The notes: generated by a model not told the origin, from the letters alone. Counted from the stretch's first letter, positions 10,543 to 57,327 are shown. The stretch: 64,000 nucleotides of DNA from a virus (IMGVR_UViG_3300020048_000018:114054-178053); one strand, 5' to 3'. Made by a program: numbers and translations.

Positions 10543-10550
10543 TCAGGAAA

Positions 10551-13926: not shown

Positions 13927-13933
13927 GTCTAAA

Positions 13934-13966: not shown

Positions 13967-13971
13967 ATTTA

Positions 13972-14007
13972 AAAAGTTTTGAACTTTTCCAGAAATTTCT
14001 ATATATT
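13972..14007 (+). promoter_or_regulatory. sigma70-type early promoter with palindromic -35
   Basis: TTGAAC(13979)-N17-TATATT(14002); AAAAGTT-TTG-AACTTTT. Confidence 0.8.
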
Positions 14008-14081
14008 ATACAAGAAGATAATTTCGGATAATATCCTTTCCGTTAATAACTAAAGTCTTCTAAATTAAAGGATTTACTTTC

Positions 14082-14804: not shown

Positions 14805-14814
14805 GGGGTTACAA

Positions 14815-15135
14815 ATGGAAAACTTCACGAATCTTTGGTCTTATCAAAATGAACAGATAATAAAATTTCAGGGTTCAATAATTTCTCTCTCAAACTTTTC
14901 AGCTATACGTCCCATAATAATAAAAAATATGGGGTATGAGGTTCCTGCAATTAAGTTTTTTGGTAAGAAAGGTATAGAGTCTCAAGTATTTAGCTATGTT
15001 GACTTCCCTGATTTTACGGGATATTCCAAGGAAGCTTTGGACAAGTCGGTGGAAAAACTGATATCAGAAGCAAATACTCAATGTGATTCAGACATCGAAT
15101 GGCTTTGGGATAATTGCTTTAAGGGGGCTAAATGA
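14815..15135 (+). CDS. hypothetical protein
   Basis: SD AAGGGG; overlaps next gene by ATGA. Confidence 0.6.
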   Translation: MENFTNLWSYQNEQIIKFQGSIISLSNFSAIRPIIIKNMGYEVPAIKFFGKKGIESQVFSYVDFPDFTGYSKEALDKSVEKLISEANTQCDSDIEWLWDNCFKGAK

Positions 15136-16325: not shown

Positions 16326-16328
16326 TTA
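16321..16328 (+). promoter_or_regulatory. ACTAATTA late-type promoter
   Basis: Upstream of acidic-protein operon. Confidence 0.4.
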
Positions 16329-16349
16329 TATAATTAGGCAGGTTTCAAG

Positions 16350-16769
16350 ATGGGAAAGAATTTAGATATTGAAAAAGATTTTGGTATTGATATAGATGGT
16401 GTATATGATTTTTTTGATGACTTAATTGAAATAGAAATTGATTATTCAGGTAAACTTCCTTCCTTAAGCGACCTTCTTACAGCAGGTAAGAGAAATTGGA
16501 AGGATATACCCGTTGAAGCTTTTGAGCATTATGCTAAAACTTCACTTAAAGTTATGTCTGAAAAGCCCTCTACAAAACTTACTGAGTCAATATCTCCCTT
16601 AAAGAAAAAGACCTTTGATGAAAGCTCTATTAGAAGTGACGCAGAACAAATTATAAAATTAAGTGAAGCTTCCCTAAAAATCAGACCTAGTGCAAGTATT
16701 GCATTAAGGTCTGAATCCGTTTATTATTGTAAAATTAATGGTGTTAAAACTGCCATTATTAAAGATTAA
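16350..16769 (+). CDS. hypothetical, possible internal head protein
   Basis: KLTES motif; late motif upstream. Confidence 0.5.
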   Translation: MGKNLDIEKDFGIDIDGVYDFFDDLIEIEIDYSGKLPSLSDLLTAGKRNWKDIPVEAFEHYAKTSLKVMSEKPSTKLTESISPLKKKTFDESSIRSDAEQIIKLSEASLKIRPSASIALRSESVYYCKINGVKTAIIKD

Positions 16770-16791
16770 ATCTCTAAAGAAGGACATAAAA

Positions 16792-17565
16792 ATGAAGGTA
16801 CAATTACAAGAAGGAAAGTTGGTTAGATGCAGTAAGGGTCATAAATACCTTACGGAAAAAGGTGATTTCGTAGAGGTTAAATCTATCGAGAATAAAAACT
16901 CTAAGCTTAAAGAAAGCTATGATGACTATATCAGTGATAAAGTGTTACCTATGATAAAGGGTATCATGGAAGAGTTTAAAGATGGAATAATGTCAAAGTA
17001 TGAGTGCTATAATTATGATGGTGAACAAGTTGAAACCACTGATGGCAGGTCATATGATGGTTTCATGAGTTCTACAGAAGGAACTGTAACATTCTGTGGA
17101 TTTACTCTCCTTGACTATCTTGAAGGTTCTGGATCTTTCCCTTCTAACGAAAAAATTAATAAAGTTATTCAAGAGAAACTTGAATACTTACATAAATCTG
17201 CAAAAGAGGATTTTATCAGTGAGAATAAAGAAGAAATAGAATCTTTAGGTCTTGAGGATTCCCAAGTAAATTATCGTGACCTTGAAGAATTAGGTCATAG
17301 AGAGCTGGCTGAAAATCTTGATGAATATGAGAGAGGTTATATCAGTGAACAACTTTCTTTTGATGTTCATGTTTATTTTAGACAAGACCGACATGATGAA
17401 AACAGCTATAATTTTTACACCTTCTCCGAATTAATTTTTGGTGATTATGGTAGATATGGTAGTGGAACACAGGCATTTGAGGGTGAGTTCGACTTTAAGA
17501 AAGGTGAAGATATTTCTACTAAAGCAAGAGAACTAATCGAACAAGCTTTTAGTAGTTTGGAATAA
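16792..17565 (+). CDS. acidic protein with N-terminal intein-block-B-like segment
   Basis: SD AAGGA; KLVRCSKGHKYLTEKGDFVEVKSI then KLKES and acidic body. Confidence 0.55.
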   Translation: MKVQLQEGKLVRCSKGHKYLTEKGDFVEVKSIENKNSKLKESYDDYISDKVLPMIKGIMEEFKDGIMSKYECYNYDGEQVETTDGRSYDGFMSSTEGTVTFCGFTLLDYLEGSGSFPSNEKINKVIQEKLEYLHKSAKEDFISENKEEIESLGLEDSQVNYRDLEELGHRELAENLDEYERGYISEQLSFDVHVYFRQDRHDENSYNFYTFSELIFGDYGRYGSGTQAFEGEFDFKKGEDISTKARELIEQAFSSLE

Positions 17566-17577
17566 GGGGATATTAGC

Positions 17578-18528
17578 ATGAAGTTTATAAAGAAAGCAGG
17601 AAAGCTCAATGAAGCTTTTGAGGATGACCAATCAATTGAAGATGCATATAAGGATGAGTTTGAGGAAGGTGATGGCACCAATGTAGAGGAATCACATTGG
17701 GATGATGATGACCAACATATAGAAGACCATGATGATGATGATGATGATGATGAAAAGTCAACCAAGATTAAAGCCTTAATGAAGTTTCTTGATATCTCAG
17801 GAGAAGAATATGATTCTGTAGAACAATCTTCCTACAATGATAACCTTTTCACCTATGGTAGAACTGAGTTTCTTGTATGCACTGACTCTGAGGCAGATGA
17901 TGAGTTTCGTGAAAACCAAGAGTCTCTTTGGGATGATATGGGAATAGACTCCTATAGTGAATATATGCAGAATTGGATTTTAGATTTTGCAGTAGATGAA
18001 GAATCTTTCTGGAGTGATCATAGTTCAGATAATGAAGAAGCTATAAGGGAAAGTCCAGATAGCTATTCTCAATATTTTGATATTGAAAAAATGAAAGAAG
18101 ACATTATTCTTGATTTGGATGACAAAGGCTCTGACTCTAAGTATAAGGGGTCTGCTTACCTTTCAACCGACCGAGATGATTTTGATGATGAAGAGTCTTT
18201 CAAAAGTGCTATTGGTGAAGAAGTTGATGGTTTGGATGATGATGATATTCTTTCAATAATTAAAGAGGATGATGACATTGATAATTATGCCTCTGAAGCT
18301 AATGAAAAGTATATGCGTGATCAGGGAACCCCTGCTCAGTATCTTAGGAGTTTAGGTTATGATGGTAAACAACTTGGTTCACAACTAAGTCCTTATCTTA
18401 AAATGGAAGAAATCTTCGAAGAAGTAAAATCTGCTGACGGAAGAGGACACGCACTTGCAGGCTATGATGGTCATGAAAATGAAGTATCTTTTGAGGATGA
18501 AACCTACTATATTTACAGAATAAACTAA
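17578..18528 (+). CDS. highly acidic protein, possible internal head protein
   Basis: KLNE near N-terminus; D/E very abundant, with Asp run. Confidence 0.6.
   Translation: MKFIKKAGKLNEAFEDDQSIEDAYKDEFEEGDGTNVEESHWDDDDQHIEDHDDDDDDDEKSTKIKALMKFLDISGEEYDSVEQSSYNDNLFTYGRTEFLVCTDSEADDEFRENQESLWDDMGIDSYSEYMQNWILDFAVDEESFWSDHSSDNEEAIRESPDSYSQYFDIEKMKEDIILDLDDKGSDSKYKGSAYLSTDRDDFDDEESFKSAIGEEVDGLDDDDILSIIKEDDDIDNYASEANEKYMRDQGTPAQYLRSLGYDGKQLGSQLSPYLKMEEIFEEVKSADGRGHALAGYDGHENEVSFEDETYYIYRIN
17731..17751 (+). repeat. (GAT)7 poly-Asp microsatellite
   Basis: Seven GAT units, in frame. Confidence 0.8.
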
Positions 18529-42779: not shown

Positions 42780-43357
42780 TTGCAGTTATAAGTACCAGTT
42801 TGCTTATTTCATGTACAAACAAAAAAATTGTTGAGGTAATACCAGAAACCAAAACAATAATCATTTATGAAACTGTTTATGAAACTGTTTTCAAAGAAGT
42901 TATCATAGAAAAAATAAAGTATACAGATGAGTATTCTCTGCCTACCGATTTTTGTGAACCAATGAAGGATTATTTCATATCAAGTAAATTTGGATTTCGT
43001 CAAAGCCCGATGGGTGGAGTTGAAGGGGAATTTAATATGCACAAAGGTCTTGATTTAGTTGGTAAGAAAAACTCCCCTGTCTACGCAGTTAAAGAGGGTG
43101 TGGTAGCAATAAACTTTCCTCCCCCTAATGGTCATTATAAGGGTCATCCTATCTATGGTGGATTAATTATTATTGATCATGGAAAAGGTCTTTATACTTT
43201 ATATGCACACCTAAGTAAGGGATTTGTTACCGAAAAACAGGTTGTTAAAAAAGGTCAACAAATTGGTGTTCAGGGAAATACCGGACAATCTACAGGACCC
43301 CATTTGCATTTTGAGATATTAGTTGACCCCAAGTACGCATTAAGTTATACTAATTAA
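42761..43357 (+). CDS. M23 family peptidase lipoprotein
   Basis: LLIS-C lipobox; HKGLD, YAHL, GQSTGPHLHFE. Confidence 0.9.
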   Translation: MWRKALVAVISTSLLISCTNKKIVEVIPETKTIIIYETVYETVFKEVIIEKIKYTDEYSLPTDFCEPMKDYFISSKFGFRQSPMGGVEGEFNMHKGLDLVGKKNSPVYAVKEGVVAINFPPPNGHYKGHPIYGGLIIIDHGKGLYTLYAHLSKGFVTEKQVVKKGQQIGVQGNTGQSTGPHLHFEILVDPKYALSYTN

Positions 43358-43375
43358 GCTAAGGAAACTTTATTT

Positions 43376-43720
43376 ATGAAAAGATTAATTCTAGTACTGT
43401 TTGTTTCGCTGTTAGCTGTATCAAGTTCTTTCTCACATAAAAAAATACTCGATGAAGAATCAGTAGAGTATTATGATGAGACTCCCGAATCAGGTGAGCA
43501 TCTTAGACTTATATATAATAGTGTTTCAAGAAACCTAACCGTAGTTTATACTTTGTCAGATGACTTTTATTTTGAGGGTGACGCATTTGTCTTAATTCGA
43601 GATAGAATTATTAAGTTTAAACTTGATAAAGGTTTTAAATATTATAAAACTATTAGTGAAGATATTATTAAATGGCATAATGATCAGGTAGAATATACAA
43701 GGTTTTTAATTTTATATTAA
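43376..43720 (+). CDS. secreted hypothetical protein
   Basis: Sec-type signal peptide. Confidence 0.55.
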   Translation: MKRLILVLFVSLLAVSSSFSHKKILDEESVEYYDETPESGEHLRLIYNSVSRNLTVVYTLSDDFYFEGDAFVLIRDRIIKFKLDKGFKYYKTISEDIIKWHNDQVEYTRFLILY

Positions 43721-43722
43721 TT

Positions 43723-43914
43723 ATGAAAAAATTAATTATAAACCCTGAAGAAATTGATATACGGGAAAGTATCTTCCTTAATGGAGGGTACTGTATATCC
43801 TCTAAGATTAAAAATTCTACAACAAAATGTATGTGCGATTATGCAAAGAAATATCATGTTTGTAAGTGCGGTTTATTCTTAACAATCGAGGTTCCTGATG
43901 AACAACCTAAATAG
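43723..43914 (+). CDS. ferredoxin-thioredoxin reductase catalytic-chain-like
   Basis: NGGYC..TKCMC..CKCGLF. Confidence 0.5.
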   Translation: MKKLIINPEEIDIRESIFLNGGYCISSKIKNSTTKCMCDYAKKYHVCKCGLFLTIEVPDEQPK

Positions 43915-44188
43915 TATCGGGAAATTTTCCCTTCAGTTTTATTTTGAGGATGAAATATTCCAGATAACTGATTCCTCAACCAACAGAATATTCAGAGAAG
44001 AAGCTTTAATGCTTTCTGCTAATTATGCGGTTTACTTTGACCTTAAATCTCAAGATGATACTTTATATACCTTAAAATCAAACTTTAAAGATTCAATATT
44101 ATCCTACTTGTTAAACTTCTATGAAATAAACTCTGATAAATTTAGATATTGGAAATCTAGAATAAAGGAAGAACCGTTTTTATGTTAA
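43898..44188 (+). CDS. hypothetical protein
   Basis: SD GAGG. Confidence 0.45.
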   Translation: MNNLNSIGKFSLQFYFEDEIFQITDSSTNRIFREEALMLSANYAVYFDLKSQDDTLYTLKSNFKDSILSYLLNFYEINSDKFRYWKSRIKEEPFLC

Positions 44189-44198
44189 GGAGAAAATT

Positions 44199-44639
44199 TT
44201 GAAAATATTTTTAGGAGGGACATGCCCCTCATTTGATGGAGATTTTGACTATAGAAAAATACTTATTCCAATCTTAAATGAATTGGACATTGAATATTTT
44301 AACCCTGTTGTAGAAGATTGGACAGAAGAATGTATAAAAATTGAAGAAGATGAAAAGGAATTATGTGATATCCATTTATATCTTATAGCTCCAAATATGA
44401 AAGGGGTATATTCAGTAGCTGAAGCTTTCGGTTCATTAATGATTTATGATGAAGAAAAAATGTCAATTCTTCTGGTATTAAAATCTATTTCAGATAAAAC
44501 TTTTGAAAAATCTCAGTTGAAAAGTCTCTATGCTACTTTAGACTTGTTCGAGAGTTGTGGAGGAAGTTCTTGGAATGCCGAGGATATCAATTCCTTAAAT
44601 GAAGACTTCTTACTAGAAATTCTAGAGGGTTATTATTGA
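44199..44639 (+). CDS. nucleoside 2-deoxyribosyltransferase-like
   Basis: KIFLGGTC, YFNPVVEDW, GVYSVAE; TTG start with AAGGAG. Confidence 0.7.
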   Translation: MKIFLGGTCPSFDGDFDYRKILIPILNELDIEYFNPVVEDWTEECIKIEEDEKELCDIHLYLIAPNMKGVYSVAEAFGSLMIYDEEKMSILLVLKSISDKTFEKSQLKSLYATLDLFESCGGSSWNAEDINSLNEDFLLEILEGYY

Positions 44640-44654
44640 AAACTAAATAAAGGT

Positions 44655-44679
44655 AAAGCACTCTATTGAGTGCTTTTTT
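44655..44679 (+). terminator. intrinsic terminator
   Basis: AAAGCACTC-TATT-GAGTGCTTT plus T tract. Confidence 0.85.
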
Positions 44680-44716
44680 GTTTTTAACCCTTTGTAATTC
44701 TCTCAACTAACTTTTT

Positions 44717-45094
44717 ATGAGCAACATTGAGTACGCAATTAAAGATACCGTCTGGGTTCTGTCAGCATTGGAAACACACTATTATAAGTTACCTATAGAA
44801 GCAGTTCTCTTAGGTATTAGCAAAACAGATAAAATTAATAAGTTTAAGGTTAAAGCTAACGGTCAAACCTTTTATGTTAAGCAGTTGTTTGATAAAGACT
44901 CTTGCATCGATACCTCATTGCTTGCTTTGAAAACTGCATTAAATGTCTTAAATGTTCTCAGATCAATGTATGGAAACTTAAAAGGTAAAGAAATTCTTAG
45001 AGTCTTAGATACCATTGATACCGAATCAAAAATAATTAAATCCCATATCTTAAAAATTGAAGGCAATGATTTCATTTGGAGTGATATCGGTTAA
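44717..45094 (+). CDS. hypothetical protein
   Basis: ACTAAC 6 nt upstream; no SD. Confidence 0.45.
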   Translation: MSNIEYAIKDTVWVLSALETHYYKLPIEAVLLGISKTDKINKFKVKANGQTFYVKQLFDKDSCIDTSLLALKTALNVLNVLRSMYGNLKGKEILRVLDTIDTESKIIKSHILKIEGNDFIWSDIG

Positions 45095-46167
45095 ATTCTG
45101 GATAAAAGTTTTTCTAAAAGTTTCTCAATATCTTCATCATATTTTATTCTTATCAACTCTAAATTATTGTCTATACAATATTTAGTTTTTATTGTGTCAT
45201 TAATCTGTCTTTTCTTGAAACCCTCAATTCCTCCAAACCATTTAACGGGAACATAATGCTGTTTTCCATCATATTCAATTAAGTGAGATAGCTTTCCATT
45301 TTCAAATATAGCAAAATCAAACGGAAGGGGTCTCTTGTTTTTGCAGTCTTTAATCTTGTACTGTTCTACAAAAGTAAGATTAGTTTTTTGCAGAATATTT
45401 CTAATCCCTTTTTCACCATGAGAGGATTGGCATCTCGGACAACCTGCCCCTGCTAAATGATGACTAGCTCTTTGGGAAAATCTCCCATGTTCTATGCAAA
45501 TAATATCTATTTCAACCTTAGAGTTCACATAGTCAACTAAGGAATAATCATATTTATCTCCATGAACTTTCTTAGCACCAAATATGTAATCTTCTGTATT
45601 TGATTTCTTGTTACCAAAACATTGAGGACACCCTTTTCCATTTAGGTGACTATTAGCCACTTGTGAAAAAACCCCATGCATTGAACAAATAATATCTATT
45701 TTGGATTCCTTCCCTACATAAGTAACAAGAGAATAGTCATAGGTATTTCCATGAACCTCTTTAGCTTTTTCAATGAATTCCACAGTTGTAGATTTCTTGT
45801 TTCTTGAACATACCGGACACCCTTTTCCCATTAAATGACTTGATGCATTTTGAAAAAACTTCCCATGATTAGGACAGATAATCTCAATCTTTAAACTTGA
45901 ATTAATATAATTCACTATCGAATAATCATACTTATTTCCATGAACATCTTTAGCTTTTTCTATATACTCCTCAGTGGTTATCTTTTGGTTTCCAGAACAT
46001 TTTGGACATCCTTGTCCCAATAAGTGCTTATTAACCATTTGAAAGAACTTCCCATGTTCTTTACATACAATCTCAACTTTAACCTTAGAGTTCACATAGC
46101 ATACCTTTGAGTAATCATATTTATCACCATGAACTTTCTTAGCTTTTTCTAGAAAAATGTTTTTCAT
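45091..46167 (-). mobile_element. homing endonuclease-like: 4 x 63-aa Zn-finger repeats plus DUF559/Vsr-like nuclease
   Basis: (HGxKYDY..IICxxHG.F.Q..H..G.GCPxC)x4; SHGE..PFDF..IEYDGKQHY. Confidence 0.8.
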
Positions 46168-46176
46168 ATCTTAGTA

Positions 46177-46185
46177 ATATTAACA
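46177..46185 (-). promoter_or_regulatory. TGTTAATAT promoter
   Basis: 9 nt before ATG 46167. Confidence 0.5.
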
Positions 46186-46189
46186 AAAA

Positions 46190-47182
46190 TCATTTTATTT
46201 TTATCTTAAAACTTTTTAGGTAGCTTTTACCATAAACTTTTTCAATGTATTTAAGAATTGGAAATAAATCATTATACTTTAATAATTTTACTTTATTTTC
46301 TTGTATAAAATTATATTTTTCCTTCCACCAGCTCTTTGTAATTGCACAGTATGGCTCACCTTCTTTATTAAAAAACTGATTTCCTTTAATTTCTTGATAC
46401 TCACCCTCTACCAGAAAATCAGGATGATACTTATGAGATATTCCATCAGAACCAAGATATGTGAAATCAGTAATTGGCTGATATGTGAAGTTTTGTTTAT
46501 TATCTGTTAGCCAAATATAATAGGCAAGTTCCCAAGAACTGTCAAAACAGACCTCATTATACACATAAGTTCTACTATATATCATTCTTCCATATTTTTT
46601 TATTATTATTTCATTTGCTTCTCTCCTCCATTCCTTTGACTTGAAGTTATGATCTACCCCATAGTGTTTCATATAAGTTCCCTTTGAGTTTTCCATTCTA
46701 ATTTTATATGATGCTTCTACTGTTCCATATCTTTTCAATAAAGTTTCATGAGACTTTTCTTTAGACTCTTCTGTTTGAGCAGGGTTCGTAACACCATATT
46801 TAATAATACACGATTTTTGAGTGTTTATGTTTCTCTCTGTCCAGTCTCTTTCTGAACTCATCCTTTTAACTTTTTCTAATTGCCAAGTGTTTTCTATCCC
46901 ATATTTTTCTAAATTTGTTTTTGACCTCTTCTCAGTAATAAGCTTAGTATCTTCTTTTGTGTATTTTCCTTTTTCATATGAGATTGAACATCCCTTGCAT
47001 AATAACTTATCTTTCTTCAATTTTCTTCTGATAGACCATATCTTAAGGGATAGTGATTTTCCGCAAATCTCACAAATACCTTGAATATCGTCTAAAGAAC
47101 CTGAGTTCCTAAATTCTTTTAATTCTTTCACATTCCTAATTTCTATCATATTTCCATGCCTTAAATAAGTTAGTTTATTCAC
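46190..47182 (-). mobile_element. homing endonuclease-like: KYG repeats plus TnsA-like PD-(D/E)xK nuclease (alt start 47149)
   Basis: CEICG..CKGC; EKYGIEN, IKYGVTN, KHYGVDH; FDSSWE..YHPDF..EIKG. Confidence 0.75.
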
Positions 47183-47211
47183 TTAAAAAGCAGGAAAGTT
47201 TGATTAAGAAA

Positions 47212-47316
47212 TTTAAGAAAAAAGTCTTTCTAAAGTACTCATACTAATTAAAGGATTAGTTATTACTACTTTAAAATTTTAAGAAAAAGTCTTTTTAAAG
47301 TACTCATACTAATTAA
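47212..47316 (+). repeat. ~40-bp direct repeat x2, each ending in ACTAATTAA (tandem late promoters)
   Basis: TTTAAGAAAAA(A)GTCTTT[C/T]TAAAGTACTCATACTAATTAA at 47212-47251 and 47278-47316. Confidence 0.8.
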
Positions 47317-47320
47317 TGTA

Positions 47321-47342
47321 TATAGCTTCGTATGAAGTTATA
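47321..47342 (+). ncRNA. C(GUAU)G leader hairpin, copy 3
   Basis: TATAGCTTC GTAT GAAGTTATA, 9 bp with one G.U. Confidence 0.55.
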
Positions 47343-47467
47343 AAGTTTTAAGTTCTACTATGTTTTAATTAAGTTAGTAAATCGGATAAAAATGCCGAGT
47401 AACTAGGTGATAAATACCTAAATGATTAAATACTACAAAAGAACAAATTGAATTAAAGGTGAAATAA

Positions 47468-49153
47468 ATGAGTTTACAAGCTAGGATGCAAGCCCGGAAA
47501 GATGCGGCTAACACAAGACAAAAAGTGAAGGAAACACTTTATAAAAACGAAAGATCTTATCGTGCAGACCGTCTTATTGAAGCATGGTCAAAAGTACCTG
47601 AAGTTGGAGCCGGTCTTAAACAACTCTCCCTTACAGAAGCACGTAACGTAGCAATCAACCTTGACCGCCAAGCATCCTTCATGGGAAAACTTAATGAAAC
47701 ACAGACCTCAAGTGCTCTTAATGGTTTTACTCCTGAAAATATGTTGAGATTGGTTAGATTAGCTATGCCTAACGTGGTACGTAACAAAATCTTCACAGAG
47801 TTTGCTATGGAAACCGCTCGTGACAGCATCAAGTACATCGAACCCGTTGTAGGCAAGTCACAGAATGGTAAGAATGATTTCTCAGGTCGCCACACTTCAA
47901 GTGAAGCAGACCCATGGGGAACTGACACTGGTTATGATGAAGAAGAAAAAAATCAAAGACGTGCTCTTTATGAAACAACTGAAGACCGTATCGTACAGGA
48001 ACTTGAAAATGCCGAAATCATTGAAGCCGCTGACATTGCAACTCCAGTGTTCATCAAAGGTGTTTCAACTGCAATCGTAGCTCATGACTTCGGTGGTATC
48101 GTTGGTATTGCTGATGCTTATATCGTTCTTGGTAAAACTGATGCAACGAGAGTTTGCGGATTCGACGAAGGTTTCATTGATGGTTACTTGACTGTTTACA
48201 AAGCAGGAAATGAAAACGATCCTATCGTTCTTCAGAACAAGAATACATTCTTCTTTGCTGGTGCAAATGAAGCCGGTCTAAGTTATGTAACAAGTATTGC
48301 TAAAACCGTTGTTGGTGGTGTTTATGCTGTTAAGTTTGGTACAGGTCTTACTGCTGGAGATATCTCTGGTCTTAAAGCTTATGCTCGTTTCGATTCTGAA
48401 ACAGACTTTGATGGCGACTACCTTGGTGAAGTAGAACTTCGTATGCATGATTATCAGTTCGTTCCACGCCCTACCTCAATCGGTATCACATGGTCACAAC
48501 TTTCTGAAATCAATCTTGATGCTTCTTTCTCAGTATCTGCTGAAGAACTTCTTGTTAGCTACGCTTCACAGGAAATCCGTGTTGCTCTTGACTATCGTGC
48601 AATTAAACTTGCATGGCAAGCCGCAAAAACTACTAAGAAATCTTCTGTAATCTTCGACGCTGGTTATTCCAGTTCAGGAGTTGGTGCAAAAGATGGTTAC
48701 TACCAGAACGCTCAGACTCTCATGACTGCTATCGAAACTGTTGGTGACAACATGTTAAATGATATCAACCGTGGTGGTGTAAGTCGCTTGGTTGCTGGTC
48801 CTTCTGCTGGTTCTTACATGAGACTTAACGCAGGATTCGCTGCTAAGGGTGCTATGAGAACTCTCGGTTGTCACCAAGTTGGTGAAATTGAAGGTATTCC
48901 GCTTTTCAAGGTTCCTTCAAAGATTATTCCTTCAAACGAGATACTTACTGTTTGGAAGAACGATGATAACGATGCAGACGTAAGTATTGCTTTCGGTACA
49001 TTGGTACCCTTCTTCAGTTCGGGAATTATCCAGAGAAAAAATTTCTATAAGGAAGCAAGTTTGGCTACTTATGGGGATTATAAGATTCTTCAACCAAAGT
49101 ATCTTAGCTCGATTAAAATCATCGGACTTAAAGATAAGACCTCAGACCTTTAA
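47468..49153 (+). CDS. major capsid protein (T4 gp23-like)
   Basis: LIEAWS, KLNE/TQTS..FTP..LVRLAMPN, QEIR..DYR, RGGVSRLVAGP, TYGD; highly biased codons; strong terminator. Confidence 0.9.
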   Translation: MSLQARMQARKDAANTRQKVKETLYKNERSYRADRLIEAWSKVPEVGAGLKQLSLTEARNVAINLDRQASFMGKLNETQTSSALNGFTPENMLRLVRLAMPNVVRNKIFTEFAMETARDSIKYIEPVVGKSQNGKNDFSGRHTSSEADPWGTDTGYDEEEKNQRRALYETTEDRIVQELENAEIIEAADIATPVFIKGVSTAIVAHDFGGIVGIADAYIVLGKTDATRVCGFDEGFIDGYLTVYKAGNENDPIVLQNKNTFFFAGANEAGLSYVTSIAKTVVGGVYAVKFGTGLTAGDISGLKAYARFDSETDFDGDYLGEVELRMHDYQFVPRPTSIGITWSQLSEINLDASFSVSAEELLVSYASQEIRVALDYRAIKLAWQAAKTTKKSSVIFDAGYSSSGVGAKDGYYQNAQTLMTAIETVGDNMLNDINRGGVSRLVAGPSAGSYMRLNAGFAAKGAMRTLGCHQVGEIEGIPLFKVPSKIIPSNEILTVWKNDDNDADVSIAFGTLVPFFSSGIIQRKNFYKEASLATYGDYKILQPKYLSSIKIIGLKDKTSDL

Positions 49154-49176
49154 TCTTATGGTAGAATAGACTTTAC

Positions 49177-49204
49177 AGGAGCACCTTTTTGGTGCTCCTT
49201 TTTT
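49177..49204 (+). terminator. intrinsic terminator
   Basis: AGGAGCACC-TTTTT-GGTGCTCCT plus T tract. Confidence 0.9.
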
Positions 49205-49210
49205 ATTTTT

Positions 49211-49219
49211 TGTTAATCT
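49211..49219 (+). promoter_or_regulatory. TGTTAATCT promoter
   Basis: 9 nt before ATG 49229. Confidence 0.5.
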
Positions 49220-49228
49220 AATATCAAG

Positions 49229-51103
49229 ATGAAAATAGAAATTAAGAACTTATATACCAAGGAAAATCCTTTAGAAATATTCTCAATAGAAGAGGCTAAG
49301 CTTCAATCCTATTCACAAAAAATATATGTGAAGTTTATTTGTGAAGATTGTGGTAAGATATCACAAAAACTTGCAATCAGTGTTGTGAATACAAAAAGTT
49401 TAACTTGTTCAGGTTGTGCAAGAAAGAGAACATATATTGAGAGATTTGGGGTAGATAATCCTGCTAAATTACAATCCTCAAAAGACAAAGTAATTAAAAC
49501 CTGTCAAGATAAATATGGGACTGATAGTCCTTTACAAAATACAGAAGTAAAAGATAAAATAGTGAAAACTAATCTGGAGAGAAGAGGGGTAGCTTGTTCT
49601 CTTCAAGACCCTAAGGTAAGAGCATTAGGGTCTAAAACTAAACTAAAAATTTATGGGGATGCTAACTATAATAACCCTAAAAAAGCCTCTGAAACAAATC
49701 TTGATAGATTTGGAACAACCTCTCCGTCTAAAAACTTAGAGATAAAAGAAAGAGGTATAGAAACTAGTATTAAGCTCTATGGAAATAGGTGTCCTTTGAT
49801 GAATGTAGACATTAGGAATAAGGCAAACTTCACTATGCGAAAAAATTATGGAGAGAATATTTTAAATGTTTTTCAAGCAGAACCTATTAAAGCTCAGTGT
49901 AGAGCAACACTAAAAGAAAAAACTGGTTATGAATATACAATGCAAGATCCTGCTACACGAAAAAAAGCTAGACGGTCAAGCGGTCAATCTTTTCCTGAGA
50001 AGAAAACGAGTGAATTACTAATAAGTGAAGGGTTTATATTTGAGTCTGAATACTATGTGAATGGAAAATGTTTTGATTTTGCTATATTCAATAAAGAAGG
50101 TACCTTAAACACATTGATAGAAATTGATGGAGAGTACTTTCATGGATTACTAAATGACTATGATGGATATCATGTACATGGCGAGAAAGACTGTGAAAGG
50201 TTTGAAAAAGTTCCCGAGGGTGTGAAGTTTATAGTTTGTGATTCCAAACATATTGAAAAAGCTTTTAGTCTGCTCTGTGAAAATTTTGAGATTAGTTATG
50301 AAAACTGGATTCAAACAATAATAGACAGTTGCAATAGTATTAGTTTTCCCTATCCAACCTATGAGCCTAAAAGATTGCTCGATGATTGGAAAAAGCTTTG
50401 TGGAAATGTAACATATAACAAAAACTCTCATGTTGGACAATCCATAATAAGTAACTATCACAAATCAATATTCACCTCAAGGGTAGGTAATTTTCCTACT
50501 CCAGTTGAAGCATGGAATAATCCTGAGTTATTAGCGAAAAACATTAGGAACAGATTTATTTATTCTAATGAACTGAGCACTCAAAAAATTGCAGATGGAT
50601 TTAATGTCTCAAGGATATCCCCTAAAGTTTCTGTTTTTCGTGCTATACTTGCTAAACACTTGATTTCAAAATACTTATCAAATTCAAAAGAAGTTTTCGA
50701 CCCTTTCAGTGGATTTAGTGGTAGAATGCTTGGAACCTGTTCCCTCAATAAAAGGTATATCGGACAAGATATTAATGCAGAGCATATCACTGAGTCAAAC
50801 GGTATTATTAGTTTCTTAAACCTAGACGCTAGAGTTGAACAAAAGAGTTTAGTTGAGTCTACTGGTAACTATGAAACTTTATTCACTTCTCCACCTTATA
50901 ACTTAACAGAAACTTGGAGCAATGATAATCAAAAAAACTTTTCTTGTGACGAGTGGATTGATGAATGCTTAAAAAGATTTAAGTGTGAAAAATATTTATT
51001 TGTAGTGGATAATACAGAAAAGTATAAAGGGAATATAGTTGAAGAACTACCATTACGATCCAATTTTGGAGATAGAATTGAATATGTAATCCTTCTATCC
51101 TAG
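49229..51103 (+). CDS. homing-endonuclease / DNA methyltransferase fusion
   Basis: CxxC..CxxC; ~8 (K/R)xYG repeats; FDFAI..IEIDGEYFH nuclease; FDPFSGFSGR..QDIN..TSPPY MTase. Confidence 0.75.
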   Translation: MKIEIKNLYTKENPLEIFSIEEAKLQSYSQKIYVKFICEDCGKISQKLAISVVNTKSLTCSGCARKRTYIERFGVDNPAKLQSSKDKVIKTCQDKYGTDSPLQNTEVKDKIVKTNLERRGVACSLQDPKVRALGSKTKLKIYGDANYNNPKKASETNLDRFGTTSPSKNLEIKERGIETSIKLYGNRCPLMNVDIRNKANFTMRKNYGENILNVFQAEPIKAQCRATLKEKTGYEYTMQDPATRKKARRSSGQSFPEKKTSELLISEGFIFESEYYVNGKCFDFAIFNKEGTLNTLIEIDGEYFHGLLNDYDGYHVHGEKDCERFEKVPEGVKFIVCDSKHIEKAFSLLCENFEISYENWIQTIIDSCNSISFPYPTYEPKRLLDDWKKLCGNVTYNKNSHVGQSIISNYHKSIFTSRVGNFPTPVEAWNNPELLAKNIRNRFIYSNELSTQKIADGFNVSRISPKVSVFRAILAKHLISKYLSNSKEVFDPFSGFSGRMLGTCSLNKRYIGQDINAEHITESNGIISFLNLDARVEQKSLVESTGNYETLFTSPPYNLTETWSNDNQKNFSCDEWIDECLKRFKCEKYLFVVDNTEKYKGNIVEELPLRSNFGDRIEYVILLS

Positions 51104-51113
51104 TCAAATTTTT

Positions 51114-51122
51114 TGTTAATAT
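51114..51122 (+). promoter_or_regulatory. TGTTAATAT promoter (leaderless candidate)
   Basis: 7 nt before ATG 51130. Confidence 0.55.
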
Positions 51123-51129
51123 ATAATAC

Positions 51130-52029
51130 ATGTCTATCACAAAGGAACTCTTCATTGAGAGGGCTAAATTATTTCATGGTGAAAAGTATGATTATTCTCA
51201 GGTAGACTATGTTGGTTCGAGAGGAAAAGTTAAAATTATATGTCCCTCACATGGAGTATTTTTTCAGAGGTCTGATAGTCATTTATCGGGGTCAGGTTGC
51301 AACAAATGTGGGAGAGAAACTACTTCCTTAACAGAAGAAGCGTTTGTGAAGAAAGCAAGAATGGTTCATGGTGAAAGATATGACTATTCCTCTTTATTCT
51401 ACAATGGGTCAGGACTAAAGGTTGATATTATTTGCCCCCAACATGGAGTTTTTTCACAAGTAGCAAATAGTCATCTGATGGGCGAAGGATGTCCCAGTTG
51501 TTCAGGGAACAAGAAATCAACAACGGAAGAATTTAAGCAAAAAGCAACGATAGTACACAAGGGTAGATATGATTACACACTTCTTGAATATATTAATTCA
51601 AGGATTAAGGTGAAAATTATTTGTACTGAACATGGAAGTTTTCTTCAATCAACTGGAGACCACCTAAATGGGGTAGGATGTCCACGATGTTGTTATTCTC
51701 ATGGAGAACTTGAGATTAGGTCAATATTACAAAAAAATAACTTAAAGTTTGTTGAACAATATAGAATTAAGGCTTGTAGAAATAAGAAACCCCTTCCGTT
51801 TGATTTTGCAATATTTGAAAATGAAAATCTCAAGTATCTGATAGAGTATGATGGGATACAACACTTTGTTCCTGTGAAATGGTTTGGTGGACTCAATGGC
51901 TTTAATAGAATTCACAATAATGATTTAATAAAAACGCAGTATTGTATAGACAATAATATAGAGTTGATAAGAATAAAATATGATGAGGAGGATATTGAAA
52001 CAAAAATAAATAAGTTGAAACTTATTTAA
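51130..52029 (+). mobile_element. homing endonuclease-like: 3 Zn-finger repeats plus DUF559/Vsr-like nuclease
   Basis: Paralog of 45091-46167; SHGE..PFDF..IEYDGIQHF. Confidence 0.8.
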
Positions 52030-52049
52030 AATTGTGATATATTAGAGAT

Positions 52050-52247
52050 ATGAATGAAGAAACAACACTTTTAAAGATAGACGCAGATTATTACCGAGAA
52101 TTATTGCTCCGTGGGGTGGTATCTTATGATACTGCAAGGGAACATATAATGCCTTATATAGATGCAATAAACAAAAAATCAAAAGAATTGGCAAAAAAAT
52201 ATAAAGTAACTGCAAAAATAATAAGTTTTTCCAGTTTTGTTAGGTGA
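52050..52247 (+). CDS. small hypothetical protein
   Basis: TGnTATATT 6 nt upstream. Confidence 0.5.
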   Translation: MNEETTLLKIDADYYRELLLRGVVSYDTAREHIMPYIDAINKKSKELAKKYKVTAKIISFSSFVR

Positions 52248-52252
52248 AAAAA

Positions 52253-53020
52253 ATGGAAATCTCGGAAAGTGATAAAACTGGAATAAAGTATTGGACAAAG
52301 CATGGTAAAATAGGGATGATGGGAAAGTTTGGTAATTTGTCCCCAGACCCCAGATGGTATTATAAAAATAGTAGTAATGCAGTATGTTTTGATGTTTCGT
52401 TAACCCCTCTCCCGAAAACTTCTTATGCCTATATAACAGAGTCCGATTTCTTAACAATCCCTAAAAAAGAAATTAAGTCTAAGTATATATTAAACCAGAT
52501 TGTCAGTAATATTGATGATAAGTTTTTATCTGTCAGGGGAAATAAATACAAAGAGTTTCGCAATGTAATAAACCGATACAAGGGTCTTGATATTAAGGAA
52601 TCCCCAGAATCACTTGATGAGGTACTAACCTTTATTAATGAATGGGAAGAATATCGGGGAGACGCTAAGTATGGTTGGCAAATGCATACTGGTTATGACA
52701 AATCATTTTTTGAGAGATTCTATGGAAAGGAGACAGACATTCAATGTTTATTTTTTTATCAAGTAGAACGATTGGTAGGATTTTCAGTTATTTCTATTGA
52801 TAATCCGAAAGAGCCATTAGTGTATATGTTAGGAAAGAATGATACTAGGCTTAAGGGATTATCACTGTATATTGATTTTATTTCATTTAAGAAGTTGTAT
52901 GAAAAGTTTGGAAAGGTGTTGATAAATTGGGGTGCATCCTCTGGAAGTCTTTTATCCTATAAGAGAAAGTTTCCTATTTACACGGAAGATAAATTATATT
53001 TTTTTAGGAAGGTTTTATGA
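52253..53020 (+). CDS. DUF2156/MprF-C-like GNAT-fold protein
   Basis: LSVRGNKYKEFRN, LVGFS, INWGASSG..YKRKFP. Confidence 0.55.
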   Translation: MEISESDKTGIKYWTKHGKIGMMGKFGNLSPDPRWYYKNSSNAVCFDVSLTPLPKTSYAYITESDFLTIPKKEIKSKYILNQIVSNIDDKFLSVRGNKYKEFRNVINRYKGLDIKESPESLDEVLTFINEWEEYRGDAKYGWQMHTGYDKSFFERFYGKETDIQCLFFYQVERLVGFSVISIDNPKEPLVYMLGKNDTRLKGLSLYIDFISFKKLYEKFGKVLINWGASSGSLLSYKRKFPIYTEDKLYFFRKVL

Positions 53021-54135
53021 ACGAAGTTCCCTTTGATGAAGACAACCATGACTTCCCTGATTTTATGAGTGTTAATGAGGATCAGTCTATAATTGGTCCA
53101 GAAGGAATTCCTTTAAGTTCTAAATATATTTGGTCTAAGAAGGGCGAAGACCGTGTTTCACTTATGGAATGGGTTTTTAATTATTATCGAACAAAAGGAT
53201 TATCTGCGGGTAATTTTACCGATGAAGAACTATTAAAAGACTTTCAACAATTAAAAAATAACAATGTGGAAGTTGTTGATGGAAAGGTTAGTCATTCTGC
53301 ATCCTGTGGATTAAAGATTGTTAAGAAGTTTACTTCAGAGCTTTACTTAAATGCTAAGGGTGGACCGAAAACTCTATCCTGCCTTGATGTTTTTCTAAAT
53401 GATGAAAAGTTTAAGAAAGTGTTGAAAAATAGAATGGGGTGGGTTTTAAATTTTGAGGATGGGTATGGTAGACCACTTATTTGGAATATTACCGATAAGA
53501 TGATATTCCAAGGTATGAGGTCTTCTGGTGTAGCTTATACGGTAAGTCAGTTTAAACCTGCTGTTGCAAAAATGTTGTATAAAAGATACAACGTAAAAAA
53601 AACATTTGACCCTTCTGCGGGTTGGGGTGCAAGAGCTATTGCGGCAGTTGCTTGTGGAGTAGAATATTATGCAACAGACCCTTTAACTTCCAGTAAGGTA
53701 AACAATCTTATTACTTTTTTTAATGGGAAAGGTACTGTATTTAACTCTGGTTCTGAGATTCAAGAAACTTACAAAGATATACCTACGGTAGATTTTATCT
53801 TTACTTCTCCCCCTTATTTTAATTTAGAAGTTTACTCAGATAATTCTTCACAATCAATAGAATCTTTTCCTAATTATTCCGAGTGGTTGGATAAATATTG
53901 GTCTCAAACTGTTGATAACTGTTTATCAATATTAGAAGGAAAGTTTGCTTTTACTATGATTGAAACTATTGGAAAGAATGAAATTTCTAAGGATATGATA
54001 AATATATGTTTATCAAAAAACTTAAAACTTATAGAAACAATAGACTTAATTACGCAAAAGTCTCATCTTTCAAATAAGAAAACTACCAAGTTGGTTTCTA
54101 AGAATACGGAACATATTTACATCTTTGAGAGATAA
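53017..54135 (+). CDS. DNA methyltransferase (N4C/N6A type)
   Basis: FDPSAGWGAR..ATDP..FTSPPYF. Confidence 0.8.
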   Translation: MNEVPFDEDNHDFPDFMSVNEDQSIIGPEGIPLSSKYIWSKKGEDRVSLMEWVFNYYRTKGLSAGNFTDEELLKDFQQLKNNNVEVVDGKVSHSASCGLKIVKKFTSELYLNAKGGPKTLSCLDVFLNDEKFKKVLKNRMGWVLNFEDGYGRPLIWNITDKMIFQGMRSSGVAYTVSQFKPAVAKMLYKRYNVKKTFDPSAGWGARAIAAVACGVEYYATDPLTSSKVNNLITFFNGKGTVFNSGSEIQETYKDIPTVDFIFTSPPYFNLEVYSDNSSQSIESFPNYSEWLDKYWSQTVDNCLSILEGKFAFTMIETIGKNEISKDMINICLSKNLKLIETIDLITQKSHLSNKKTTKLVSKNTEHIYIFER

Positions 54136-54155
54136 TTATTAAATTAAGAATAAAT

Positions 54156-54187
54156 GAGTACCTTTAACAGGGGTACTCCTTTTTTTT
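54156..54187 (+). terminator. intrinsic terminator
   Basis: GAGTACC/GGTACTC plus T tract. Confidence 0.75.
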
Positions 54188-54195
54188 GTTAATAT
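54187..54195 (+). promoter_or_regulatory. TGTTAATAT promoter (leaderless candidate)
   Basis: 7 nt before ATG 54203. Confidence 0.55.
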
Positions 54196-54202
54196 ATTAA
54201 TG

Positions 54203-54607
54203 ATGGATATAATATTTGAGCGAAATTCCTTCAATGAAACAGGGGAAGAAACAACTAGAACCTCTTTTGATTGTTATTTTAATGGCAATATAGTTGGTAG
54301 AATTGAAATATATGTGAATAAATATTTCCTAAGAAAACAGGAAATATATATAGAAGTTGAGCGAGAGTTTAGAAGACAAGGCTTTGCCAAATTAATCTAT
54401 TCAAACTTTCTTGAAAAATCTGTAAAATTAGGCTTTAAGAAAAAAACTTTTTATGCAGTTGTGAACCTGAATAATAAAGCATCCCTTAAACTTCATACCA
54501 GTCTTTTTCCTGTATGTGAAATTACCCATTTGTGTAAAGTTTTCCTCATTAAAAAGAAAAATATTGTTAATATACCATCTTATGAGGGAACCCATGGAAT
54601 TAAATAA
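54203..54607 (+). CDS. GNAT acetyltransferase
   Basis: VEREFRRQGFAK, NKASLKLH. Confidence 0.75.
   Translation: MDIIFERNSFNETGEETTRTSFDCYFNGNIVGRIEIYVNKYFLRKQEIYIEVEREFRRQGFAKLIYSNFLEKSVKLGFKKKTFYAVVNLNNKASLKLHTSLFPVCEITHLCKVFLIKKKNIVNIPSYEGTHGIK
54565..54573 (+). promoter_or_regulatory. internal TGTTAATAT promoter
   Basis: Upstream of SD GAGGG of MTase. Confidence 0.4.
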
Positions 54608-55406
54608 ATGCTACAATGAAAATTGCTTAGAAACTATGGGCAAAATGCCTGATAAATACATTGATCTTACTGTTACCTCGCCTCCCTACGACAACTTAAG
54701 AAATTACAAGGGCTATAGTTTTGATTTTGAGTCCGTAGCAAAAGAGCTGTATAGGGTAACAAAAGAGGGTGGAGTAGTTGTTTGGGTTGTAGGAGATTCC
54801 ACTATAAAAGGTAGTGAGTCAGGTACAAGTTTTAAACAAGCCCTGTATTTCAAAGAAATTGGATTCAACTTACACGATACAATGATATATCAAAAAAATG
54901 CTTTACCTAAAAATCATAATAGATATGAACAGGATTTTGAATACATGTTTGTCCTCAGTAAGGGAAAACCTAAAACATTTAATCCGATTCGTATACCCTG
55001 TCTTTATCCTGAGAAAGAAGATTCAAGAAAGAATAGTTATTTTTCAGAGACTACCGAAATTAATAGGGTTGCAAGATCCGGTAAAAAAAGAAGTCCTGTA
55101 GGACTGGATAAAATTAAAGGAAATATTTGGAAAATAAATACAGGGTCTGGACACAGCACCTTGGATAAGTTTGCCTTTGACCACCCTGCAATTTTTCCAG
55201 AAACTCTCGCTAATGACCATATCACTTCATGGTCAAATGAAAATGACCTTGTGTATGACCCCTTTAGTGGTTCAGGTACAACCTTAAAAATGGCAATTCT
55301 AAATAAACGAAACTGGATTGGTTCTGAAATAAGTGTAGAGTATTGTGAAATAATTAAAAAAAGAACAACTGGATTAGGATTCACCTTTTCCAAAAAGGAA
55401 TTCTAA
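54594..55406 (+). CDS. DNA methyltransferase (beta-class N4C/N6A)
   Basis: VTSPPY..HPAIFP..YDPFSGSGTT. Confidence 0.9.
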   Translation: MELNKCYNENCLETMGKMPDKYIDLTVTSPPYDNLRNYKGYSFDFESVAKELYRVTKEGGVVVWVVGDSTIKGSESGTSFKQALYFKEIGFNLHDTMIYQKNALPKNHNRYEQDFEYMFVLSKGKPKTFNPIRIPCLYPEKEDSRKNSYFSETTEINRVARSGKKRSPVGLDKIKGNIWKINTGSGHSTLDKFAFDHPAIFPETLANDHITSWSNENDLVYDPFSGSGTTLKMAILNKRNWIGSEISVEYCEIIKKRTTGLGFTFSKKEF

Positions 55407-56432
55407 ATGAACCTTGAAGAATTAAAAAATCAATACGATGTATCTGAACATATTGAAGAATCTATTGACATACCCGAGATGCCAAAAGAGGGAATAGTTC
55501 TCTTAGTGGGTTCCAGTGGAAGTGGTAAATCTACAATACTTAGAAGTTGGATGGGAGAAATCCCCGCTGTTGAATTTGATACTACTAAATCCGTTATTGA
55601 AAACTTTTCTTCTATAGACTCTGGGGATAGATTGCTCAGAGACTTTGGCTTGAAAAGTATACCTACATGGTTTCGCAGTTCTGCAACTTTATCGAATGGG
55701 GAATTTCATAGAGCACATTGCGCCCTCTTGGTTGATAAAGGTATTTGGTGTATAGATGAATTCACTTCTGTTGTAGATAGAAATACGGCTAAGTCATTAG
55801 CAAGTTCTATACGAAAACATCATAAAGGAGGTTTGTTAGTTCTTGCTTCCTGTCATAGGGATATCGCAGAATGGCTTCAGCCTGATTGGATATATGACAC
55901 TGATTCAAAAGAATTAACAAGGGGGTTACTTCAACGACCCTCAATCAACCTCGAAATTATTTCCAGCACCGTCAAAGATTGGGTTTATTTCAAGAAGCAT
56001 CACTATTTAAGTTCAAGCATATCAAAGAGTGTACATTGCTATACTGCTTACATAGAAAATAAACCTGTAGCGTTTCTTGCTATAATTCATAGATGTGGTC
56101 GGGACATTCATTCTTATTGGGGTGAATGTAGACTTGTAGTAATTCCAGAGTTTCAGGGATTAGGTATCGGTATACGTTTATCCGAAGCAATAGCCGAGGA
56201 ATATGTCTCAAGAGGTCTGAGGTATTTTGCAAAAACTTCCCACCCCTCTCTTGGAGAATATCGTAATAGTTCTGATAAGTGGAGACCTACAAGTACAAAT
56301 CAAGTAAGAAGATCAAGTTACTTAAAAGATGGAGAAGCTAGAATGCAAAAGGGTTTTGGAAAATCAAAAGAATCCATTATCAGAGATTCTAGAAGACTTT
56401 GCTACTCTCATGAGTTTAGAAAAAAGGTGTAG
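55407..56432 (+). CDS. ABC-ATPase / GNAT fusion
   Basis: GSSGSGKS, LSNGE, IDEFTS, SCH; RLVVIPEFQGLGIG. Confidence 0.85.
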   Translation: MNLEELKNQYDVSEHIEESIDIPEMPKEGIVLLVGSSGSGKSTILRSWMGEIPAVEFDTTKSVIENFSSIDSGDRLLRDFGLKSIPTWFRSSATLSNGEFHRAHCALLVDKGIWCIDEFTSVVDRNTAKSLASSIRKHHKGGLLVLASCHRDIAEWLQPDWIYDTDSKELTRGLLQRPSINLEIISSTVKDWVYFKKHHYLSSSISKSVHCYTAYIENKPVAFLAIIHRCGRDIHSYWGECRLVVIPEFQGLGIGIRLSEAIAEEYVSRGLRYFAKTSHPSLGEYRNSSDKWRPTSTNQVRRSSYLKDGEARMQKGFGKSKESIIRDSRRLCYSHEFRKKV

Positions 56433-56436
56433 TAAT

Positions 56437-56574
56437 ATGGAAGCTTGGAAATGGTGGTTTGTAATAAGTGTTTGGTTTATAGCTCCTGCTTTTTGTTCAG
56501 TAGGGATAATAGTTTCTTATTATTATCAGAAATTTAAAAAAAGGTATCCAGATAATGCAATTGATACATGGTGA
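56437..56574 (+). CDS. small membrane protein
   Basis: SD AAGGTG; single TM. Confidence 0.45.
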   Translation: MEAWKWWFVISVWFIAPAFCSVGIIVSYYYQKFKKRYPDNAIDTW

Positions 56575-57327
56575 TTGTTTAGAAAAAATGAAAGATATTC
56601 CCGAAGGAAGTATTGATCTTTGTGTTACCAGTCCACCTTATAATATGAATCTTAGAATTAGGAAGGGTAAACATTGTTCAAGACAAATTGTTAAAGAACT
56701 TTCTACAAAATATGAAAACTTTTCTGACAACCTTACAATGGAAGAACTTTATTGTTTTAATGAAAAAGTAATTTTAGAGTTGCTTAGAGTTTCAAAGTTA
56801 TCATTTTATAATATCCAATTTTTGACGGGTAACAAGTCTGCATTCTTTAAGTTGATAGGTAGATTCTCTGAGAATATCAAAGAGTTTATTATCTGGGATA
56901 AAGTGAATGCAGAACCCGCAATAGGTTCTGGTGTTCTCAACTCAAGGTTTGAAGTTCTACTTGTTCTATCTTCAAAAGAAGATGCCCTCTCAAGAAGTTT
57001 TAAACAATCAACTTGGGAAAGAGGTACACTTCAAAATCTCTGGTCAATACGCAGAGGGAAAAACAATCATTTAATCATGGAGCAGTTTTTCCATTAGAGC
57101 TGATAGACACTATTATTAAAAACTTTTCACTTGAAGGTGATTCTGTTTTAGACCCTTTTTTAGGTACAGGAACTACGGGAGTTATTTGTAAGAATCTTAA
57201 TAGAAACTTTATAGGTATTGAAAAAGATAAAAAGTATTTTGAGATAGCTAGGAATAGAATTGATGGAACTAAACTAAGCAAAGAAGATATTACATCAAAA
57301 ACTTTTAAGTTTGGTATAACGGGTTAG
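56555..57327 (+). pseudogene. beta-class DNA methyltransferase split by -1 frameshift near 57059-57063
   Basis: TSPPY in frame 1; HGAVFP..LDPFLGTGTT in -1 frame; break at GGGAAAAAC. Confidence 0.75.

Follow-up and report, generated by a model that had tools for sequence, protein, structure and literature searches.

How a free-standing homing endonuclease spares the genome that carries it is an old question, usually answered by chance polymorphism of its target. This question is raised again by a gene in a 64,000-nt stretch of viral DNA (IMGVR_UViG_3300020048_000018:114054-178053; hereafter the window, that is, the whole stretch analysed) from a 178-kb phage genome. Here, an uninterrupted open reading frame (ORF) at 49229-51103 on the + strand, which opens with ATG and is free of internal stops, encodes a 624-aa protein in which a predicted homing endonuclease is joined to an amino-methyltransferase. 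The initial annotation of this locus had described exactly such a single ORF next to the capsid gene, and had proposed that it is a selfish element methylating its own genome while cutting unmethylated relatives. What is this protein made of, is it a real and mobile entity, and could its methyltransferase be what protects the carrier?

As to composition, ORF calling, Pfam, PHROG and homologue searches, together with an AlphaFold2 model built on 56 homologues (mean predicted local distance difference test, pLDDT, 85), outline a zinc ribbon, a helical repeat array, a nuclease core, an all-helical domain and a seven-stranded Rossmann methyltransferase. The zinc ribbon (aa 33-64, window 49325-49420, on the + strand like all parts of the gene) corresponds to the zinc knuckle that had been noticed earlier, with four Cys (C38, C41, C60 and C63) that are at least 90% conserved among the 56 homologues and a β-hairpin ribbon modelled at residues 33-48. 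It is followed by eight helical (K/R)xYG repeats (aa 65-250, 49421-49978), variable among homologues, which form the presumed DNA-addressing array. Their turns, of the form (K/R)x(Y/F/R/T)G, are spaced by 19-25 residues (G at 74, 97, 120, 143, 162, 185, 208 and 233) and match nine regularly spaced helices in the model. This region, where about eight repeats had been anticipated, scores 78 bits (E 1.3e-21) against Pfam DUF7487 (PF24308), for which the gathering cut-off is 27, and it also matches PHROGs annotated as homing endonucleases; an NCBIfam scan of the fusion protein gave no informative match. Next come a Vsr/DUF559/EDxHD-type PD-(D/E)XK nuclease (aa 251-365, 49979-50323), a conserved helical domain containing a motif-X-like 'PKVSVF..LAK..I' (aa 366-485, 50324-50683) and a minimal class I amino-methyltransferase core, delineated by motif conservation, fold and Pfam (aa 486-624, 50684-51100). 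In the 56-sequence alignment, aa 255-624 are strongly conserved, whereas the repeats are not.

In the nuclease, the signature FDFAIF...EIDGEYFH spans residues 282-305. E257, D283, F284, D300, G301 and H305 are invariant in the same alignment. Candidate counterparts of the catalytic D196, H213 and nearby acidic residues of I-Bth0305I are E257, D283 and D300, which do not vary, together with E298, H305, D310 and D321, each of them either retained in 90% or more of the homologues or replaced conservatively. The modelled core has an α-β-β-β-α-β topology. When the domain was modelled separately (pLDDT 77) and used in two independent structure searches, the top match in VIA (48,161 chains) was the catalytic domain of I-Bth0305I (3r3p; Z 8.8, root-mean-square deviation 3.6, 91 residues aligned), the prototype of the EDxHD homing endonuclease family, which includes the phage Hef type (PMC3239194). 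The DUF559 protein NGO0050 (3hrl, Z 8.6) and E. coli Vsr (1cw0, Z 7.9) came second and third, and Foldseek likewise placed 3r3p first (probability 0.99). Searches of the PDB by sequence, with the single nuclease sequence and with a 27-sequence profile, gave chance matches only and did not reach 3r3p, so the Vsr/EDxHD assignment rests on structure. The modelled fold is that of a Vsr-like variant of PD-(D/E)XK, in agreement with the DUF559/Vsr-like nuclease originally recognised from its motifs. A side observation concerns the loop GEYFHGLLNDYDGYHVHGEKD (aa 300-320, window 50126-50188), which has a pLDDT below 50 yet holds conserved G301, H305, G306, L307 and D310, several of them invariant, and may be an active-site loop ordered by DNA or metal.

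The complete amino-methyltransferase that had been read at the C-terminus is borne out as well. Motif I FDPFSG (aa 490-495, nt 50696-50713), D514 and motif IV SPPY (aa 554-557, nt 50888-50899) all lie inside the methyltransferase core and are conserved in the fusion family, invariant residues in the 56-sequence alignment being D491-P-F-S-G495, S497-G-R499, D514, E522, P556 and Y557. Pfam N6_N4_Mtase (PF01555, cut-off 26.7) is matched at 28.5 bits by the whole protein and at 31.2 bits by the C-terminal part alone, in two permuted stretches of the domain. The modelled fold is a seven-stranded class I methyltransferase with a core of ~140 aa, for which PDB fold matches are Trm11, METTL5, RsmD-like proteins, the Type IIG enzyme BpuSI, and PacII. 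The family profile aligns with the DNA N4-cytosine methyltransferase 8s9m over motifs X-I, and collinearly with Trm11 from motif I to motif IV. Motif I precedes motif IV in the fusion, the reverse of the beta-class order. From these fold matches, the two profile alignments and the two-piece N6_N4_Mtase match, it follows that the domain is a circularly permuted, minimal relative of beta-class DNA amino-methyltransferases, with a gamma/Trm11-like motif order. Domain hidden Markov models (HMMs) and structure prediction, which the initial annotation had suggested as checks, confirm the anatomy of both halves (Pfam, AlphaFold2, VIA and Foldseek).

Is the joining of these halves genuine? A database search with the fusion protein returned 773 homologues, many of the top-scoring ones being proteins of 570-900 aa that align over 88-99% of the query with an identity of 41-51%. 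When the helical and methyltransferase part was searched against 1.84 billion cluster representatives (50%-identity clusters), it matched 1,201 clusters at E<=1e-3, of which 259 reached E<=1e-30, and in nearly all of the 1,201 this module sits at the extreme C-terminus of long proteins. The best 150 of these 1,201 relatives, classed by local HMMs, comprise 108 with a Vsr-type nuclease, 21 with an ExK-type PD-(D/E)XK nuclease and ~5 that stand alone (<340 aa); in other words, at least 86% of the best 150 are nuclease-fused and ~3% stand-alone, which makes the methyltransferase module nearly exclusive to homing nucleases. Short proteins related to the N-terminal 365 aa but devoid of a methyltransferase are only 28-39% identical. 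Domain order and the nuclease-methyltransferase junction are fixed across the family. BFVD contains viral proteins of the same build, either unnamed or called 'endonuclease-like', and structurally similar giant-virus proteins automatically annotated as N4-cytosine methyltransferases; outside uncultured large phages and giant-virus-like contigs, the family is essentially absent. Because hundreds of independently assembled full-length homologues share this architecture, with both catalytic sets invariant, the single-chain form is supported, and the fusion is real and no frameshift artefact.

Split forms of the same pair of enzymes also exist. In one (L070/L071:3491-6828), an 809-aa protein with DUF7487 and a Vsr-type endonuclease is encoded by a gene ending 8 nt before a 299-aa methyltransferase gene. 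In another (L056:3597-6819, also L055 and L057-L059), a capsid-like gene is followed by a 320-aa endonuclease-like gene overlapping a 275-aa stand-alone methyltransferase gene, in a phage that reads TGA as Trp, as seen from in-frame TGA at conserved Trp positions. Further adjacent or overlapping nuclease and methyltransferase genes are found at L040/L041.

The second question is whether the gene is mobile. It starts 76 nt downstream of the stop codon of a gene on the + strand (47468-49153) that encodes a gp23-like major capsid protein, identified by structure and tblastn (Atlas feature score 0.97, TM 0.76-0.80, and weak tblastn matches to annotated capsid proteins), which upholds the capsid neighbourhood assigned earlier. 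Between the two lies an intrinsic-terminator-like element (49177-49209, +) composed of a strong, GC-rich 9-bp hairpin (49177-49199) and a T-run, and no obvious Shine-Dalgarno sequence is present upstream of the fusion ATG. The terminator and the absence of a clear ribosome-binding site fit low expression of the fusion gene, which reviews describe for phage homing endonuclease genes (PMC2988022). An Rfam scan of 43000-57000 found no group I intron, and the window copy is therefore free-standing; no second copy occurs in the whole 178-kb genome.

Presence or absence at this locus in relatives, which the initial annotation had suggested as a check, does differ: the slot that follows the capsid gene is polymorphic. 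It is empty of any endonuclease match in two relatives with capsids ~50% identical to that of the window (L077, L078), and holds a 308-aa DUF7487 endonuclease without methyltransferase in L004/L079 (capsid 50%), a 514-aa ORF with a DUF7487-repeat N-terminus and no methyltransferase match in L081 (capsid 49%), an ExK-type endonuclease-methyltransferase fusion in L083 (capsid 63%), and a 624-aa Vsr-type fusion 41.5% identical to that of the window in L002 (capsid ~38-60%). L002, of which the capsid gene and polA regions concerned are 5600-11100 and 13360-18061, has a second, 686-aa fusion copy located between the capsid segments corresponding to window residues 113-476 and 477-551. This copy adjoins a group-I-intron-like core (43.9 bits, below the Rfam cut-off of 50) in a capsid gene holding three clear group I introns (86-110 bits), and a 402-aa DUF7487 endonuclease interrupts the polA gene of L002. 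Among the 27 loci scanned (L001-L003 and 24 viral-contig loci), introns were seen only at L002 and L037. No phage closely related to that of the window was found. Its nearest relative (L082; capsid 85% identical on a 1.2-kb fragment, other capsid matches being at most 63%) has a homologue of window gene 44717-45094 followed after ~240 nt by the capsid gene (L082:125-1198), without the two endonuclease genes that lie upstream of the capsid gene in the window.

A capsid-like gene is also found immediately upstream of the fusion gene at unrelated loci (L023, L024), and ~2.6 kb downstream of it at L005/L006. Some genomes carry 2-4 or more fusion copies, such as a 240-kb phage contig (IMGVR_UViG_3300028591_000076; L004, L048, L067, L074) with at least four diverged endonuclease-methyltransferase genes. 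Between paralogues in one genome, identity is 57-72% for the nuclease, helical and methyltransferase domains but only 20-33% for the repeats, a pattern that fits a variable address attached to a constant effector cassette. Because the slot is polymorphic in relatives, one copy splits an intron-rich capsid gene and some genomes are multi-copy, it is near-certain from these comparisons that the fusion gene is a mobile homing element. In other endonuclease families, homing genes have been documented to cluster at essential genes, those for capsid proteins among them (PMC10055350; PMC2988022).

What, then, would the methyltransferase be for? The reading that we prefer, and which we consider evenly balanced between right and wrong, is that the gene behind the capsid terminator encodes a self-protecting homing unit, akin to restriction-modification (R-M) systems, that would cut naive alleles and mark the carrier genome. 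The N-terminal zinc ribbon and the eight-repeat helical array would address a long DNA site, and the Vsr-like (EDxHD-type) nuclease would cut a nearby allele in related phages without the gene, after which recombinational repair would copy the fusion gene into the cut genome. The C-terminal S-adenosylmethionine (SAM)-dependent amino-methyltransferase would most likely methylate a base at or near the nuclease site and so spare the carrier genome, the result being a single-chain, restriction-modification-like cut-and-mark unit. Catalytic methylation coupled to each nuclease is favoured by the near-obligate nuclease fusion of the methyltransferase, by the invariance of both catalytic motif sets (in the methyltransferase, of the catalytic PPY as well as the SAM-binding residues), and by the occurrence of several copies per genome with divergent repeats and conserved catalytic domains. 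A more specific and more tentative proposal, which we hold to be rather less probable than its failure, is that the methyltransferase module evolved as a dedicated partner of homing endonucleases, and that the variable repeat array steers the constant nuclease and the constant methyltransferase to the same long site, where naive rivals would be cut and the carrier marked. In that case the fusion would represent a living intermediate between homing endonucleases and restriction-modification systems, and might lend itself as a scaffold to programmable cutting or methylation.

Several observations weigh against this self-protecting homing unit. The L002 copy inside the capsid intervening sequence keeps its methyltransferase, though its insertion would already destroy the target, and self-protection at the insertion site therefore cannot be the whole story. 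The helical and methyltransferase parts are conserved despite differing repeats and two nuclease types, and may have a fixed or low specificity of their own. The best relative of the window copy is 51% identical, so that recent homing of this copy cannot be shown. RNA amino-methyltransferases (Trm11, METTL5) are among the proteins structurally nearest to the methyltransferase, and the family consensus for motif IV is CPPY, with Cys replacing D/N/S in >90% of members, the window protein having SPPY; to our knowledge, no CPPY amino-methyltransferase has been characterised.

Among the other explanations, the one that survives best, though it is unlikely, is that the methyltransferase is cargo, i.e. 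a general anti-restriction methylase with its own short motif, which methylates the whole genome and rides the endonuclease for mobility. This would account for a helical and methyltransferase module that stays conserved across different repeat arrays and nuclease types, for the stand-alone and split methyltransferase forms, and for a window that is rich in other DNA-modification genes, and homing-endonuclease islands with cargo genes have already been published (PMC10055350). It sits badly with the scarcity of stand-alone forms (~3% of the best 150 relatives, against at least 86% nuclease-fused), with the fixed domain order and junction, and with genomes carrying 2-4 or more copies, which would be redundant for a general methylase.

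Somewhat less likely again is a regulatory role, in which the methyltransferase would act as a clamp that binds SAM and flips a base in order to position or license the nuclease, methyl transfer having no protective role. Precedents are the Type IIG enzymes BpuSI and MmeI, which join nuclease and methyltransferase and have SAM-stimulated cleavage (PMC3817140, PMC2582602), and BpuSI is among the fold matches of both the nuclease and the methyltransferase domain of the fusion. Against a clamp of this sort stand the catalytic PPY of motif IV, which is invariant along with the SAM-binding motif I and D514, and the split two-gene forms, which would break intramolecular licensing.

We regard as improbable a third explanation, that of a domesticated weapon, in other words a phage-encoded restriction-modification enzyme in one chain that no longer homes, but would degrade DNA of hosts or competitors in general and mark phage DNA. 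Nuclease and methyltransferase are indeed in one chain, the GC content of the fusion gene equals that of its surroundings, and its divergence from relatives (~41-50%) resembles that of the capsid gene. These points are countered by the long variable repeat array, which is typical of rare-cutting homing endonucleases, by the presence/absence and replacement polymorphism of the slot with one intron-associated copy, and by the position of the gene behind a terminator without a clear ribosome-binding site.

Very improbable is that the C-terminal domain is an RNA methylase or an intron maturase instead of a DNA methylase. Its top PDB folds are RNA amino-methyltransferases (Trm11, METTL5, RsmD-like), its I-then-IV motif order is collinear with Trm11, and some copies adjoin group I introns, but most copies are free-standing and intron-less, the matches at sequence level are a Pfam family of DNA methylases (N6_N4_Mtase) and the structure of a DNA N4-cytosine methyltransferase, and the domain shares its chain with a DNA nuclease and with repeats that bind DNA. 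An assembly or frameshift artefact joining two genes, for which the split versions in other phages (L070/L071, L040/L041, L056) might be invoked, is scarcely credible given the identical junction in hundreds of independently assembled single-chain homologues and an ORF without internal stop. A Dcm-Vsr-like pairing of a methylase with a mismatch-repair nickase was also considered, and was rejected on the basis of the homing repeat array, the mobile/intron context, and a chemistry that is that of an amino- and not a C5-methyltransferase.

How does the fusion compare with known systems? With EDxHD/Vsr-like homing endonucleases (I-Bth0305I, 3r3p, PMC3239194; free-standing Hef-type enzymes; the F-Lim endonucleases of Dickeya phage LIMEstone1) it shares the nuclease fold, a bipartite design with an N-terminal modular DNA-binding region, and a phage context in which genes are intron-borne or free-standing between conserved genes, with presence/absence polymorphism. 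Identity to F-LimVIII-type proteins is ~25% over aa 33-335. Unlike characterised EDxHD endonucleases, it has an additional 260-aa helical and methyltransferase module, its DNA-binding array consists of DUF7487 repeats where theirs are of NUMOD/helix-turn-helix type, and it has no sequence match to 3r3p. By its modelled fold and its context, the fusion is placed with the EDxHD/Hef-type free-standing homing endonucleases, a predicted family placement.

The resemblance to Type IIG/IIC enzymes (MmeI, BpuSI, Eco57I) lies in a single polypeptide with a PD-(D/E)XK nuclease upstream of an amino-methyltransferase in which motif I comes before motif IV, and in a cut-and-mark logic, which for the fusion is putative. 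The fusion differs from them in having no C-terminal target-recognition domain, since its chain ends with the methyltransferase core at aa 624 and recognition presumably lies in the N-terminal repeats, in having a Vsr-type nuclease, and in being a mobile phage gene beside or inside essential genes and not a cellular defence locus. Its similarity to BpuSI (3s1s) is at the level of fold only (TM 0.21/0.16, Z 5.1), and no Pfam or NCBIfam match to the MmeI/BpuSI/Eco57I families, nor sequence homology with them, was found. As for the N6_N4_Mtase beta-class (including 8s9m), the fusion has in common with it the motif X-I region '..LA..I....DPF.G' and (S/C)PPY, but differs by its permuted order, its minimal core of ~140 aa and the family consensus Cys in place of D/N/S before PPY.

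In genomic setting, the fusion is most like the free-standing homing genes found at essential phage genes (T4 seg/mob, PMC2988022; PMC10055350). It too is intergenic by a conserved structural gene and, as with T4 seg/mob and capsid islands, several endonuclease genes cluster there and vary in presence among relatives. Term searches found no occurrence of 'methyl' in PMC10055350 and, in PMC2988022, no account of how a carrier genome escapes cutting. In the literature searched, there was no description of homing endonuclease-methyltransferase fusions. The novelty here is that known kinds of enzyme, a homing endonuclease and an amino-methyltransferase, are joined in a new combination.

Were the self-protecting homing unit to be true, it would have implications for both the homing-endonuclease and the restriction-modification fields, to which the fusion is of interest and in which it is directly testable. 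A nuclease-fused methyltransferase would (i) provide the carrier genome with an active, heritable immunity and (ii) mechanistically tie homing endonucleases to restriction-modification systems, two classes of selfish nucleases. With no fewer than 1,201 clusters at 50% identity, the family is large, and in its constant effector cassette with variable repeats there is a hint of modular DNA recognition that might be put to practical use.

The surroundings of the fusion gene in the window contain more of the same kinds of genes. Upstream of the capsid gene, two genes on the - strand encode homing endonucleases. One (46190-47182) specifies a DUF7487 protein of 330 aa that has an ExK-type nuclease but lacks a methyltransferase, the other (45091-46167) a protein of 358 aa with zinc-finger repeats (DUF4379/DUF723), the nuclease of which can be aligned with the fusion's nuclease. 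A 299-aa paralogue of this 358-aa protein (62% identity) is encoded downstream of the fusion on the + strand (51130-52029). Four homing-endonuclease genes are thus packed around the capsid gene, the outer two being the 62% identical paralogues in inverted orientation. Further downstream (53017-54135, +) is a paralogue of the methyltransferase module that stands on its own (FDPSAG...TSPPY). Its likeness to the fusion had been pointed out and proves genuine though remote, with 24% identity across 231 aa and a pairwise E of 7e-12, both proteins matching phrog_12517. Lastly, on a viral contig bearing a family member, an Rfam cow-rumen-2 RNA (L021:10156-10261, 104 bits) gives a hint that some of the family may come from rumen or gut.

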